Shown in pieces: positions 24,498 through 30,632 of a stretch of DNA of 64,000 nt. The notes under the pieces are model-generated. The model saw only the letters and a program-made list of their open reading frames with translations. It was not told where the DNA came from and did no database searches. How positions within the stretch are numbered: position 1 is the first letter of the stretch; the number at the start of each line of letters is the position of its first letter. The position numbers and the translations under genes were made by a program. The stretch covers positions 1-64,000 of IMG/VR virus record IMGVR_UViG_3300042886_000261. The stretch is one strand, 5' to 3'. Source of the DNA: a virus.

Positions 24498-24513
24498 ATC
24501 ACAAATATAAGTA

Positions 24514-24777
24514 TTATTCAAATACCTTATACATCCTATTAAATTTTTTTTCTGGCATGAGTGAAAATGTACCGGCCCAATCCTGTATCACATAGTCCCC
24601 CGGTACTAATCTAATTTCACCATTATCAGTAGTGAGAAAAAAGCTATCAAATTTATGATTGATATAATTAATATGTCCCTCAAAATTCTCATATCCGGAA
24701 ATCTTAATAGCACATTCTTCTGTACCATCATACTGTATAGCCTCAATACTCTTAGGCCTTTCTCTATATAACTGCAT
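24514..24777 (-). CDS. Conserved phage protein (IEAIQYDG...PGDYV family)
   Basis: Motif pattern common in phages; own TATCTTTG promoter. Confidence 0.7.
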   Translation of the reverse strand: MQLYRERPKSIEAIQYDGTEECAIKISGYENFEGHINYINHKFDSFFLTTDNGEIRLVPGDYVIQDWAGTFSLMPEKKFNRMYKVFE

Positions 24778-24809
24778 AATAAATAATTTTAAGATACAAA
24801 GATAATAAT

Positions 24810-24882
24810 AAAAACAAAATCCCCAGACATGTGCCCAGGGATTTCCTTACCTAACTAAATAAATTTAAAAAAATTTATGATA
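24810..24882 (-). ncRNA. Putative small RNA C
   Basis: TATATTTG promoter 24887-24894 right behind a terminator; no upstream ORF; 3' end shares 16 nt (TAGGTAAGGAAATCCC) and GGGATTTTGTTTTT with sRNA A. Confidence 0.55.
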
Positions 24883-24898
24883 CATGCAAATATACAAT

Positions 24899-25030
24899 AA
24901 AAAAACCCAGGTAGTAATTCTTGATCAGAGAAACTTTCCTGGGGGTAGTAAAGTTATAGACATTGTCCTTTCCCTTACTAAGAAGTCCAAACCTGGGACG
25001 CTGATCTTACGGGAAGCGTGTCTGGCACCT
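24899..25030 (-). ncRNA. Putative structured small RNA D
   Basis: TATATTTG promoter 25035-25042; GC-rich stems AGACA/TGTCT, CGCT/AGCG, TCCC/GGGA; CCCAGG/CCTGGG terminator plus U-tract. Confidence 0.55.
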
Positions 25031-25221
25031 AATACAAATATAAAACAATTCCCCGGGAATACACCTTACCTATAATAAATAAATACGGAGGTAGATTTAG
25101 TATATGCAGTAAGATGTAGTGGACCCTCCATAGCAAACCCCCCGGCCCTTCAGGCCTAGCTGGTACCCCCCATTGTTTAAAGGAATTCAGCTCACAACCA
25201 TTATGAAAAATACTAAAAATT

Positions 25222-25419
25222 ATGAGAACAGATATTAGAATTGTACTTGTGTTGGTGGATCCAACACTTGCTACTGCTGCACCTGAAGGTGCTAGAGTTA
25301 TTGCTATGAGCCAAGCTCAAGCAATGATCAACACCTGGATAACACAAGGTGTTCTTGTTAAATATAAAGTTGGCCCTTGTAATGACCACTTATTATTTGA
25401 GATTATAAGAACTAAGTAA
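25222..25419 (+). CDS. Early hypothetical protein
   Basis: A-rich leader; followed by terminator taagggt/accctta. Confidence 0.6.
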   Translation: MRTDIRIVLVLVDPTLATAAPEGARVIAMSQAQAMINTWITQGVLVKYKVGPCNDHLLFEIIRTK

Positions 25420-25433
25420 GGGTTATACCCTTA

Positions 25434-25488
25434 TTTTTTTCTTGCCTGCGGCAGCTTTTATTTATTCAGCTCTAAACTATTAGGGATA
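25434..25488 (+). repeat. Early-region repeat copy (triloop hairpin + CAGCT..ATTCAGCT..AAACT..GGGATA)
   Basis: Near-identical to 25953-26004; partial copy at 25144-25193. Confidence 0.8.
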
Positions 25489-25517
25489 TAAATGTTTAAT
25501 TAATTAAATTTAGAGTT

Positions 25518-25844
25518 ATGGAAACTGTTAAAGACCCAATTGCGGTTTGTACTATTAAAAGTATAGACGCAGAAATCAGTATCAATACCAATGGTAAAAG
25601 ATACAAAAAAGTAACTTTAATCACTGCTTCAGGGAAACCTGCTAGAGGAGTGATTTATGAAGTTGTGTGGGATAAAGTATCTCAGGGAGATGAAGTAAAT
25701 GTGGCGTTATCCTTAATGGATGATAACAAAACACTTATCCCAAGTGTATTAGGATTACCAATGGAATCATTATCATATGATGATTTTGGTATCACTGCAC
25801 CTGCACCTGCTGTTAAAGATGATATGGAAAACCCATTCTCTTAA
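25518..25844 (+). CDS. OB-fold/SSB-like early protein
   Basis: Beta-rich (NGKRYKKVTL) with acidic DDMENPFS tail. Confidence 0.5.
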   Translation: METVKDPIAVCTIKSIDAEISINTNGKRYKKVTLITASGKPARGVIYEVVWDKVSQGDEVNVALSLMDDNKTLIPSVLGLPMESLSYDDFGITAPAPAVKDDMENPFS

Positions 25845-25855
25845 CACGGAAGAAT

Positions 25856-25892
25856 AAACCCTTACCTTAATAGGTAGGGGTTTATTATTTTT
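25856..25892 (+). terminator. Intrinsic terminator
   Basis: aaacccttacc/ggtaggggttt hairpin plus T-tract. Confidence 0.7.
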
Positions 25893-25952
25893 ATTCCCAT
25901 TGTAGTTAAATGTATTACTGTGTTTGATATACTGTGTATGATGCACTATGTA

Positions 25953-26004
25953 TTTTTTCTTGGCTTTGCCAGCTTTATTATTCAGCTTTAAACTGTAGGG
26001 GATA
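25953..26004 (+). repeat. Early-region repeat copy
   Basis: Matches 25434-25488 with a covarying hairpin stem. Confidence 0.8.
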
Positions 26005-26470
26005 GTAGTGTTGGTAAATTATGTGGTCTATTGATATAAAGATATAATGTCATTTAACTACATGGTCTTATTATATATACTTAGTCAGATGCATTAAGTA
26101 TAAGTTGACAGTAATGTTGTATTTATATTAATCATATTGACAGTCTCACACCGGTACTTGTAGTCAAATTGATTATATTATAGGTGATGTTAGTTATGTT
26201 GTAGGTAATGTTGTAACATGCTGGTAGTTAAATAGTTATGTGGATATAATTTGTGTGAGAATGTGTGAGATAAAGTAGTTGACAGTCAAACACCCACCTA
26301 AACTAATGCTTTAACTCACATCTGTAACTACCTGATTAGGCTATATCTATATTAATATATGGCTAAATCATGAACTTAGTCTACTCACTCACATTACAAT
26401 ACTATATTCTTATCTATTAGTTAGTAGGAGAGTATAATAGCTATTGAATCCGGAATCTTAATAAATTTAA

Positions 26471-26683
26471 AATAGTAATGTACCATTCTCACTTCCCAAG
26501 GGTGAGCAGTTGTAATACACATATAGACTCAGTTGAAACCTCCAAAGGCTCCCTTAAAAAGCCCAATAGAATATTTGGTAAATACTGTTTAAAATGGTGT
26601 ATGTAACATGTCTGTGATAGACTCTTTAATTAGAGAACTAAAACATCAGCTTATGTATTACAACTGAGTACAGAGGGATTATT
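26471..26683 (+). ncRNA. Twister-like self-cleaving ribozyme (type P1) with ~135-nt insert in P5
   Basis: P1 aatag/ttatt; UAA cleavage loop 26476-78; P2 tgta/taca; P4 ctcac/gtgag with loop (t)TCCC-AA-GG; T1 TCCC/GGGA; T2 CC/GG; GA after P2'; 13-bp P5. Confidence 0.65.
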
Positions 26684-26684
26684 A

Positions 26685-27225
26685 CCGTGATGTCCTGTTT
26701 GGGTTCTTGAATACACGTAAAAACTGAAGAACATCCTATCCAGTAAGTTGCTGGCGTTGGCTCACCATAACAGACAAGTGAGAAATTAAATGTAGGTGAC
26801 AACCATTAACCAAAGAGGATCTTTGGGGTTACGCTGAACAGATTGACAAAGTCTTTAGTATCATAAATCGGGGATGCCCAGTTCAGTATTGATACACTAC
26901 ATTTTAATAACATAGTCCTATGCACCTTAACCAATAAAAGCTAAGGGACTTAATCCGTTAAACAAAGGTGGTTAGCAATAACCAGTATATAAGGAGTGTT
27001 ATTATTATATGATTCAAGACAATCAATCCTGAAGAGGATTTGTCAGGAGAAATTCATAAGGCTGAACAATAGTTCAGTATATAAACTTATGATGTCTAGC
27101 CTGATATAAACAAGCAGAGTACATTGTACTAACTTATCTGTGCTTTTGGAGTTAGCTACCAAGGGTGGGAACGGGGAACAGAGTGTGTAGATATTCCATG
27201 GGTCTACACCTGCTTGTTTATTTTT
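26685..27225 (+). ncRNA. Multi-domain structured non-coding RNA region
   Basis: No ORF in the track, GC-elevated, many nested inverted repeats (e.g. 26788-95/26897-904, 27054-60/27086-92, 27106-17/27210-21). Confidence 0.55.
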
Positions 27226-27265
27226 ATTAACTGAAAAATTATTAACTGAAACTAAAACTGAAAAG

Positions 27266-27406
27266 ATGAAAGAATTAACATGTAGTCAATGTGGTAATAT
27301 TATTATAGAATCTTATGTAACAAAAGGAACATATATACAATGTTTTGATTGTTATGCACAAGAAGAATATGATTTTGAAAACCCAAATCTTAATGATTAT
27401 GAATAA
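27266..27406 (+). CDS. Small zinc-finger protein (46 aa)
   Basis: Not in track; MKELTCSQCG...QCFDC. Confidence 0.55.
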   Translation: MKELTCSQCGNIIIESYVTKGTYIQCFDCYAQEEYDFENPNLNDYE

Positions 27407-28229: not shown

Positions 28230-28253
28230 ATTTTTAACTTAAAACTAAAAATT

Positions 28254-28520
28254 ATGAAACTAATATTAATAGCATTAAGCTTCTTTGGATATAATACTCC
28301 TAAAGATAGCAGATCAACAACCAGGTTTACTAAAAGTGAAACAGAATTCATTAATAATATTATTAAATTAAATGGTGAACCTAATGAAATATATCACTCA
28401 GGTAAAAATATTCAAGTTAATTATTCAAATCAAAGATTAAGCTTAGGTCAAGATGGATTTATCCATGAACTTGAAGTTTTAGTTGATGGACAATGGATCA
28501 ATGCTGGTCCTGAATTTTGA
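28254..28520 (+). CDS. Hypothetical secreted/membrane protein (start MKLILIAL)
   Basis: ATG at 28254 with A-rich leader; the upstream GTG lies in structured RNA. Confidence 0.55.
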   Translation: MKLILIALSFFGYNTPKDSRSTTRFTKSETEFINNIIKLNGEPNEIYHSGKNIQVNYSNQRLSLGQDGFIHELEVLVDGQWINAGPEF

Positions 28521-28762
28521 TTACTGAAAATTGTTTAGTGGGATGTAATGAGATTACACACCATAGAAACTGCAGTGAATATGTATTACAGAAGATAAGT
28601 ATAAGAGAGATAACCTGTAAAGAGGGTTATCTTAATTTATTATCATATCATAAGGAATATGCAGTATTAGGAGAATCGGCTATATCATACACAATAATGT
28701 GTGATAATGGTCACGTAAAAAAATTAAGTAAAAAGTTATTTTATGGAGGAAATGATAAATGA
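28517..28762 (+). CDS. Hypothetical protein
   Basis: 81 aa, overlapping stop/start. Confidence 0.45.
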   Translation: MITENCLVGCNEITHHRNCSEYVLQKISIREITCKEGYLNLLSYHKEYAVLGESAISYTIMCDNGHVKKLSKKLFYGGNDK

Positions 28763-29010
28763 ACTGAACAGTCTGAGAGAAAGTCTCAAGGATGTAGACT
28801 CTTTAAATGCATCATGGGATGTAAAAGAGTATATGAAAAATGAAATTCAATATGCAATTATGTGTATTGAATTCACAATAACTAACTGATATGGAAACAT
28901 TAATAGTAATAAGTTGTTCAATACTAGTAGTAATGGTCAGTGTAATGATCATAATCAGTATTGATAAAAATAAATAACATTTTGGTCAATGTATATAATT
29001 CAGAAAAGAT

Positions 29011-29232
29011 ATGGAAAAAGATTTAATTATGTCAGTGATAGGTTTTGATAAAGCTTGTCAACTTGAGGTAGACGGTAAAGTACTTACAGGAGGTGTAACT
29101 AGAACAGTTATGCCACCTGTATATGGTATTGCAAGTGAAGAATGTATTAACAATACCCTTGATGTTAAGGTGTTTGACCACTTTAACTGGGAGTTATTCT
29201 TTAGGTTAAGGTCAGTAAAACATTCATTATGA
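29011..29232 (+). CDS. Hypothetical protein
   Basis: 73 aa. Confidence 0.55.
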   Translation: MEKDLIMSVIGFDKACQLEVDGKVLTGGVTRTVMPPVYGIASEECINNTLDVKVFDHFNWELFFRLRSVKHSL

Positions 29233-29654
29233 GTAAAATAAGAATAGAAGTGGATGAAGAGAAATTAGTAAATGCATTAGATGGTTTTATTGGTGCTGGT
29301 GGAGTTAGAGATCTTATAAAAGATATGTTTAATCATACTCAAAAAGCAAAAGAAATGCTTGGTCAACTATTATTAGGTGAAGAATTACCTATAAAACCAA
29401 CTGTTGGTCAAATGGGTTATGTCAAAATGGAACACATGTGGTTTACTAATAAAGAATTTACACAGAATACTAATTTAGATGTAAAAGGAACTTTATCTTG
29501 TAAAGTAGTAAGAATTAATGGATATACTGAGTATTCACAAGTATCAATAGAATTTCCAACATATGATTCTGCAGGTGAAATACAAATTATATCAAATGGA
29601 GTTGCTTTTGATCAATTTATTTGGTTACAAGAGGATTTAAAAGATAGTATCTGA
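29229..29654 (+). CDS. Hypothetical protein
   Basis: 141 aa; terminator-like hairpin at 29677-29700. Confidence 0.65.
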   Translation: MSKIRIEVDEEKLVNALDGFIGAGGVRDLIKDMFNHTQKAKEMLGQLLLGEELPIKPTVGQMGYVKMEHMWFTNKEFTQNTNLDVKGTLSCKVVRINGYTEYSQVSIEFPTYDSAGEIQIISNGVAFDQFIWLQEDLKDSI

Positions 29655-29786
29655 GTATACTACATGACCAATAATTTGGGGAGTATTTATATTCCCCATT
29701 ATTATTTAGCCATATAATGCTGAAATAAATGATAAACTGTTGAATTATTTATATATAAAGTCTAAATTTAGACTTATTTATAAAAC

Positions 29787-30068
29787 ATGCAATATCAGTT
29801 ACCTACGGGACGTGTAATTTACATTACTATAGAACAATATTTGTCTATGACTGATAATGATATACAGTATCTTATATCAACAAATGCAGGTGAATCAATT
29901 CACAATCCCTTCACTAGATCTGCACTAGATGAAAACTCCACAGAAAAGCACAAAAACAAAGAATATGATTTCTCATTTATTTCACCAGATGATGAGAATG
30001 TAAGAGAAATATCATTTGAGGATTTAACTCAAGATGATTTAGATAGAATAGATAGTATGGATATGTAA
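29787..30068 (+). CDS. Conserved hypothetical protein
   Basis: MQYQLPTGRVIYITIEQYL start, acidic tail. Confidence 0.65.
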   Translation: MQYQLPTGRVIYITIEQYLSMTDNDIQYLISTNAGESIHNPFTRSALDENSTEKHKNKEYDFSFISPDDENVREISFEDLTQDDLDRIDSMDM

Positions 30069-30161
30069 AACTTAACTTGGAAGAGTAGGCCAAGGAATAG
30101 CTAAAATTATACTCAAATCAATTAAAAAACAAAACAAGTATTAATCGCAAAAACACAAGTT

Positions 30162-30632
30162 ATGAGTAAAGTAAGAGTAATTGGAGATGAAACAGGAAAT
30201 GTTATCAACCAGTCAGCAACTAATCCAGATTATGGATATGTAAGAGTAGAAAGTGTAAAAACTACCATTGATGATAATGGATTTTTAAGAAAAAGATCTA
30301 TTAGTACCTTGATTCAAGGTCATTTAACTGATTTAAAATCAGAAGGTTATTACAGTGGACAAGAATTAAATGGTAAAATTGTAGTATTGGAGGCATTAAC
30401 TCCATTTAACAAAAAGAATCCTGAAAGAGATATTAAACAAGCAGGTAACACTGGTATTGTTTGTACTCTTGGAGGTGAACCAATTTACAGAAAAACTCTG
30501 TACACATTATCATCAAATGCAGAAGATGTATTTATTAAACATGATAATGTAGAGCAAATCAGAAATGCATTTGGAGGTGTTCAAAAAACATCTGCAGTAA
30601 ATGCTGAAACATCTGATGAATTCAATTTTTAA
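30162..30632 (+). CDS. Putative single-stranded DNA-binding protein
   Basis: Beta-rich body, flexible linker and acidic/aromatic tail ETSDEFNF; own terminator at 30648-30677. Confidence 0.5.
   Translation: MSKVRVIGDETGNVINQSATNPDYGYVRVESVKTTIDDNGFLRKRSISTLIQGHLTDLKSEGYYSGQELNGKIVVLEALTPFNKKNPERDIKQAGNTGIVCTLGGEPIYRKTLYTLSSNAEDVFIKHDNVEQIRNAFGGVQKTSAVNAETSDEFNF

Follow-up and report, generated by a model that had tools for sequence, protein, structure and literature searches.

Genomic Context and Anatomy of the Element

The window analyzed here is a stretch of 64,000 nucleotides, the first 64 kb of a 106,750-bp IMG/VR virus record, and positions are numbered from its first letter. Its G+C content is approximately 30%, and genes coding for a phage portal protein, terminase, and DNA polymerase are present. 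The large terminase shares approximately 24% identity with those of crAss-like phages of Bacteroides, Flavobacterium, and Cellulophaga. At approximately 25950-27265 the genes change from the minus to the plus strand across a 1.3-kb gap without genes, and the element described below is located in this gap. A tRNA-linked ribozyme was considered and rejected, since the window contains no tRNA. Upstream of the element, GTTGACAGT occurs three times in 183 nt on the plus strand (26104-26286; two exact copies and one with a single mismatch), including the only exact copies in the window, and these repeats could be an operator or promoter element. The features of the locus are as follows, where copies are those of an alignment of 114 family members.

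26471..26475, plus strand: 5′ strand of P1 (AAUAG), a weak, AU-rich helix
26476..26478, plus strand: U^AA with the predicted scissile bond U26476/A26477; UAA in 114/114 copies
26479..26484, plus strand: 5′ strand of P2 (UGUA, 26479-82), followed by C26483 and C26484; P2 99.6% paired
26485..26487, plus strand: L2 linker AUU, P3 being absent; ATT in most copies
26488..26506, plus strand: P4 (CUCAC 26488-92/GUGAG 26502-06) with its loop L4; P4 99.1% paired
26493..26501, plus strand: L4 UUCCCAAGG, in which C26495-97 is the 5′ strand of T1
26507..26519, plus strand: 5′ strand of P5, with the base CAGUUGUAAU conserved in sequence; base of 10 pairs, 94.5% paired, all covarying
26520..26653, plus strand: insert (“cargo”) in P5, 134 nt, specific to this phage
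26654..26668, plus strand: 3′ strand of P5 UGUAUUACAACUG (26654-66), then A26667 (invariant) and G26668 (covarying with C26483)
26669..26672, plus strand: 3′ strand of P2 (UACA), pairing with 26479-82
26673..26678, plus strand: G26673 (113/114 copies), A26674 (114/114), G26675-77 (3′ strand of T1), and A26678
26679..26683, plus strand: 3′ strand of P1 (UUAUU), pairing with 26471-75 through five pairs, one of them G.U
26684..27225, plus strand: structured non-coding RNA modules directly behind the element; fold z = -2.3
26733..26783, plus strand: “block A”, a 50-nt two-hairpin module (CCAG...CUGG; CUCAC...GUGAG)
27224..27268, plus strand: A-rich translation leader and ATG of the first plus-strand gene (UUAUUAACUGAAACUAAAACUGAAAAGAUG)

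All twister elements listed in a preliminary description of this DNA, which had been made from the letters alone, were found at their coordinates. P5 is a perfect helix of 13 bp (26507-19/26654-66) around the 134 nt of the insert. P1, P2, P4, and P5 are all present in the minimum-free-energy fold, and P5 together with its insert folds with z = -2.1. G26673 is the counterpart of the general-base guanine G45 of the rice twister (numbering as in PMC5113685). The P1 helix of that description was upheld in part. Its five pairs are present in the window, but for the family as a whole P1 is a weak helix, with 41-65% of cells paired, and the canonical twister register fits slightly better there than the one first proposed; the window copy pairs best in the latter. 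The L2 linker also occurs as ACAA, ATAA, or ACT in the family.

A Family of Phage Elements with Covarying Helices

Viral contigs were scanned with a 17-base pattern of the 5′ core in which the P2 and P4 positions were left free, and at least 119 viral loci matched. Among the 128 matches listed, 127 had a complementary P4 (at least 4 of 5 pairs), in approximately 16 different versions of the helix. In 121 of the 128, the complement of the copy's own P2 was followed by GAGGG 14-257 nt downstream, a part of the element that lies outside the search pattern. The same pattern was run as a negative control on prokaryote genomes (596 Gb) and gave 57 matches, of which 50 had none of the structure and 7 were real. 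The latter were located on contigs of metagenome bins, mostly of Bacteroidota (Chitinophagaceae, Sediminibacterium, Bacteroidia). These matches probably represent phage DNA that was sorted into the bins, and the bins hint at the host. These scans confirmed that the element is more than a chance match and that the family is real.

A covariance model built from 53 copies found extra copies beyond the pattern, and 114 copies were aligned. The UAA was also invariant in the copies found by the covariance model alone. A search of this phage for a second copy gave one full copy and a weak match at 92284-92322 (E = 0.13). A DNA search of the phage collection gave no match. Two odd copies (L030:8433-8576 and L049:1555-1676) have a common deviant 5′ half (..AAAUCAG(U)CUCCCAAGG..). 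Both are missing the UAA-P2-CC part as well as the 5′ strand of P4, and their P5 and 3′ half are normal; they represent either a decayed or a rearranged form. The contig of one of these copies also carries a tmRNA gene with a tRNA gene directly after it (L049:7798-8346; Rfam 70.9 and 54 bits).

In the 114-copy alignment, 94% of the cells were paired, compared with 80% in shuffles and 33-50% when the partners were slid. Both-sided changes were observed in four of the five P2 pairs, in all five P4 pairs, and in all ten pairs of the P5 base. T1 is the pseudoknot by which the twister fold is defined. Its three CCC/GGG pairs, which are absent from the search model, contained no mismatch in 114 copies: one pair was C-G in 113 copies and U-A in 1, another was C-G in 109 and A-U in 5, and the third was invariant. 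The exceptions changed on both sides, with UUCACAAGG occurring together with GAGUG in five divergent copies (C-G to A-U) and UUUCCAAGG together with GAGGA in one copy (C-G to U-A). The T1 pseudoknot TCCC/GGGA first read from the single sequence was thus borne out by compensatory changes at two of its three CCC/GGG pairs. The unpaired bases of the catalytic site, the UAA and the G-A ahead of GGG, were kept in 113-114 of the 114 copies.

Re-reading of the T2 Region

The preliminary description had proposed that a CC/GG pair of pairs, together with one extra U in L4, replaces the usual GC/GC T2 pseudoknot. The half of this proposal that concerns C26484-G26500 was retained, as this pair is invariant in all aligned copies. 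C26483-G26501 became doubtful, because C26483 covaries with G26668 instead. In alignment columns 17 and 296, these two positions were C-G in 108 copies and U-A in 6, with no exceptions. G26668 is the G of the otherwise invariant AG just 5′ of the 3′ strand of P2, and a pair with C26483 stacks directly on P2. U26493 is invariant and could form a U.G pair with G26501, and two copies have A at 26501, resulting in U-A. One of these relatives, L130, would contain a C.A mismatch under a CC/GG-type T2.

Since C26483 covaries with G26668 and position 26501 changes in step with U26493, the family more likely follows the simplest model, in which P2 has 5 bp, U.G closes P4, the loop reads UCCCAAG, and C26484-G26500 is the only T2 pair. 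The total stack height in such a model would be the same as in the canonical twister. Two scans for T2 covariation gave 28 matches, of which 26 were due to chance and 2 were real (L129 with UC/GA and L130 with CC/GA). A GC/GC version of T2 in this scaffold was found neither in these scans nor in the 114-copy alignment. The six U-A copies at C26483-G26668 may go back to one event, which makes the support for this re-reading thin. More generally, a few divergent copies account for the compensatory changes seen in T1 and at C26483-G26668, and these copies perhaps reflect only two or three evolutionary events. The pairings of C26483 with G26668 and with G26501 might also alternate.

Searches of Rfam and the Literature

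Rfam was searched at the gathering threshold and also at E ≤ 10, both with the window and with relatives that have a short P5. Only chance snoRNA-like matches resulted, and none of the twister models RF03160, RF03154, and RF02684 was matched. RF03160 had no match in the whole phage genome either. It had been suggested that standard models may miss the element because of its insert. This explanation failed, because relatives whose P5 holds only 14 nt (L016, with its copy at 2886-2957, and L026) also gave no twister match at E ≤ 10, so the insert is not what hides the family. No paper describing this phage twister variant was found in a literature search. The family is very probably a self-cleaving RNA, a rewired, phage-specific form of the twister type that is absent from Rfam.

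Placement and Downstream Genes

Among 120 copies surveyed, the next ORF was on the same strand as the element in 103 of 107 cases, and the upstream ORF was on the same strand in 88 of 108. No more than 6 of the 120 copies were located inside an ORF of at least 70 codons. The median distance to the next ORF was 158 nt, and in many copies it was 30-60 nt, with the start codon behind an A-rich leader. The 110 downstream ORFs fell into 63 clusters, mostly without a known family, and a link to one specific downstream gene was rejected on this ground. A protein of approximately 303 aa without known function recurred 11 times among them. The gene for a Ro-like RNA-binding protein (DUF2828/DUF7788, phrog_850) was the first gene after a copy at 4 loci, including L096:3266-4651. 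The Bacteroidota host-type promoter motif (TAnnTTTG) was not found at a fixed distance from the copies. Given the diversity of the downstream genes, the same-strand placement, and the lack of a fixed promoter, the element behaves like a device of general use that is placed in leaders and between cistrons.

In two relatives (L013 and L085) the leader found here at 27224-27268, with its ATG, follows directly behind the element, and in the window approximately 540 nt of structured RNA lie in between. The leader UUAUUAACUGAAACUAAAACUGAAAAGAUG is recurrent in other phages and looks like a shared translation-initiation cassette. The intervening RNA (26684-27225) had no Rfam match, and its last domain is closed by a long helix, with a U run after it. 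Block A within it is 96-100% identical in 11 other viral contigs with differing surroundings. In 6 of these 11 contigs, block A is located exactly 23 nt upstream of a copy of the element; in the window it is 50 nt downstream.

Abundance of the RNA in Lake Water

In lake-water metatranscriptomes (4 runs from 4 studies), contigs of relatives covered 26476-27198 at 40-660×. The cover was 40-230× over the structured RNA (26684-27225), 1-27× over the genes at 28246-30499, and zero over 24500-26100, which argues against DNA carry-over. These RNA contigs belong to relatives with other P5 inserts, and this phage's own insert is uncovered. The relatives lack 26788-26906 and 27004-27106, suggesting that the non-coding stretch is built of separable modules. 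Adapter junctions at approximately 27175 and 27198 mark 3′ ends, and their orientation fits plus-sense RNA if standard stranded libraries are assumed. At least one RNA contig crosses the predicted cleavage site uncut, which could be precursor RNA or DNA. Contig ends near the core were rejected as RNA ends, because the core is common to many copies and breaks the assembly graph. The cover by contigs of relatives shows that RNA of this kind, led by the element, is abundant in nature, whereas such contigs cannot show the cleavage site. The earlier proposal that a non-coding or early transcript of the phage begins with the element was supported by this abundant plus-sense RNA of relatives, which extends from approximately 26476 to approximately 27198.

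Exchangeable Inserts in P5

The P5 inserts of the family measure 14-257 nt, and most of them bear no relation to one another. The foot of P5, CAGUUGUAAU/AUUACAACUG, has a conserved sequence. The 134-nt insert of the window had no match in the fetched loci. Inserts at least 90% identical were found in 14 pairs of copies, and in 6 of these pairs the cores had different P4 helices. Each common version of P4 was combined with many different inserts. Tandem copies with different P4 helices were seen in 8 of 9 genomes, an observation that was dropped since allele frequencies predict it. The best antisense target of the insert in the phage's own genome was a perfect, AT-rich match of 16 nt (26567-26582 against 88461-88476), which was rejected as being at about the level of chance estimated for AT-rich sequence. 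The conserved P5 base might be a socket for swapped RNA cargos such as decoys, aptamers, or small regulators, a tentative suggestion to which we assign a low probability. If it is true, the family would provide a natural library of ribozyme-capped, self-processing RNA devices, and some cargos may gate cleavage.

Proposed Role of the Element and Alternative Explanations

On the comparative evidence described above, we consider it likely that 26471-26683 on the plus strand is a phage-specific variant of the type-P1 twister, predicted to cleave itself and thereby make the 5′ ends of early RNAs. The RNA would fold into P1, P2 (probably of 5 bp), P4, and a long P5. The loop L4 (UCCCAAG) would reach back to G26675-77 and form T1, and at least one T2 pair, C26484-G26500, would be added, a fold that would place U26476 and A26477 beside G26673. 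From the observed family, its pairing, its placement, and the abundance of its RNA, we infer that cleavage follows during transcription, between 26476 and 26477. It would leave a 2′,3′-cyclic phosphate on a short upstream piece and a 5′-OH on the downstream piece, and the downstream RNA would retain the folded ribozyme, with its P5 insert, at its 5′ end. In the window this RNA would comprise approximately 540 nt of structured modules, and in most relatives a short A-rich leader and a gene. Such a cut could give early RNAs a defined 5′ end that is independent of the promoter and of host RNases, and it could separate these RNAs from upstream RNA. The 5′-OH end would probably shield the RNA from nucleases that need a 5′ phosphate. 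A defining, insulating, or stabilizing role of this kind has been proposed generally for bacterial and phage ribozymes (PMC6765202).

Alternatively, the element may be a conserved twister-descended or twister-like RNA that no longer cleaves and acts as a protein-binding or RNA-stabilizing 5′ element, with its loops serving for binding. This explanation would fit the lack of an Rfam twister match, the contig that spans the site uncut, and the alteration of the canonical pairs G13-C31 and G23-C32 (PMC5113685, PMC5408937); the sequence-conserved P5 base also resembles a recognition site. However, the active-site set, consisting of the A after the cut, the next A, the G-A, the CCC/GGG of T1, and the AA of the loop, is kept in 113-114 of the 114 copies, and T1 is held by compensatory change. 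It is not evident why a plain binding site would require this exact set, and we regard the loss of cleavage as unlikely. We give slightly less credit to the possibility that the P5 insert governs cleavage by the ribozyme, with each insert sensing a different ligand, protein, or RNA and turning the fold on or off. C26483, which could pair with either G26668 or G26501, would provide a possible switch, and the exchange of inserts between cores with different P4 helices, as well as the range of insert lengths on a conserved socket, would be in line with such control. Against it, bare copies with a P5 of 14 nt exist, which implies that the core needs no insert in order to work, or at least to persist. 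In addition, the inserts showed no conserved aptamer-like motif, and the sole antisense match in the phage's own genome is the chance-level 16-mer.

An explanation at the DNA level, in which the element is a recombination hotspot, a promoter, or a protein-binding site and its RNA structure is incidental, is disfavored and appears very improbable to us. The element is multi-copy, its mosaic parts have been exchanged between phages, and conserved sequence blocks adjoin it, as might be expected of a DNA repeat. However, the helices stay paired where both strands have changed and accept G.U pairs, the orientation of the element follows the downstream gene, the region is abundant as plus-sense RNA, and there is no host-type promoter motif at a fixed distance.

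What function twister ribozymes serve in bacteria and phages has yet to be settled (PMC6765202). The present family comprises well over a hundred copies, which are consistently placed in the leaders of non-coding RNAs and of phage genes on the same strand. This consistent placement, together with the abundant natural RNA and the natural minimal versions, makes a role of the putative ribozyme as a 5′-end maker or insulator directly testable. If the assignment is correct, the core of twister can accommodate a rewiring of its L2/L4 region that escapes current covariance models, and catalogs therefore probably undercount twisters in viral data.

Comparison with Known Self-Cleaving RNAs

The closest known system is the type-P1 twister (RF03160; rice Osa-1-4 and env22; PMC5408937, PMC5113685). 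The phage family shares with it the order P1, U^AA, P2, L2, P4/L4, optional P5, 3′ strand of P2, GA, GGG, and 3′ strand of P1. The L4 sequence UCCCAAG and the CCC/GGG of T1 are also shared, and one C-G pair of T2 is common to both (the equivalent of C14-G30, here C26484-G26500). P3 is missing in approximately 20% of twisters, as it is in the phage family, and P5 is a permitted insertion site of which the phage family makes use. The two differ in pairs that have been called essential or nearly invariant in the canonical twister, namely G13-C31 of T2 and G23-C32, which closes P4 (PMC5113685, PMC5408937). Where the canonical form has the T2 pair G13-C31, the L2 C of the phage family covaries with a 3′ G and extends P2. 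The P4-closing pair G23-C32, described as “essentially invariant” (PMC5408937), is replaced by a U.G or a variable pair. The last P4 pair across the family is C-G, A-U, U-A, or G-C, and the next possible pair is U.G. The phage family also differs in the sequence conservation of the P5 base and of the AG before the 3′ strand of P2, in the exchangeable insert of 14-257 nt in P5, and in having no Rfam model match. The pseudoknot pairs of twister can be replaced by other Watson-Crick pairs with activity retained (PMC5113685), and natural twisters tolerate many imperfections, P1 being dispensable (bioRxiv 10.1101/2024.07.11.603121; PMC5408937).

Twister-sister (RF02681) is likewise a small self-cleaving RNA with twister-like loops and phage-related contexts. 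However, it cleaves the opposite strand and shows no sign of a pseudoknot (PMC5408937), whereas the phage family has a covarying T1 and the layout of the twister cleavage site. RF02681 had no match in the window at the gathering threshold and at E ≤ 10. The hatchet ribozyme is largely confined to Crassvirales genomes (bioRxiv 10.64898/2026.03.07.710320). As a self-cleaving class concentrated in crAss-like phages, it may have the same role in RNA processing, although its fold and sequence are unrelated to those of the phage family and no hatchet match was found in the window.

A further parallel is provided by RiboJ, an engineered hammerhead-type insulator derived from the sTRSV satellite RNA. 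When RiboJ is placed in a 5′ leader, the upstream RNA is removed, a structured 5′-OH end stays on the transcript, and expression becomes independent of the promoter context. RiboJ is engineered and of the hammerhead type, whereas the phage element is natural and of the twister type, and an insulator effect is ascribed to it by analogy.
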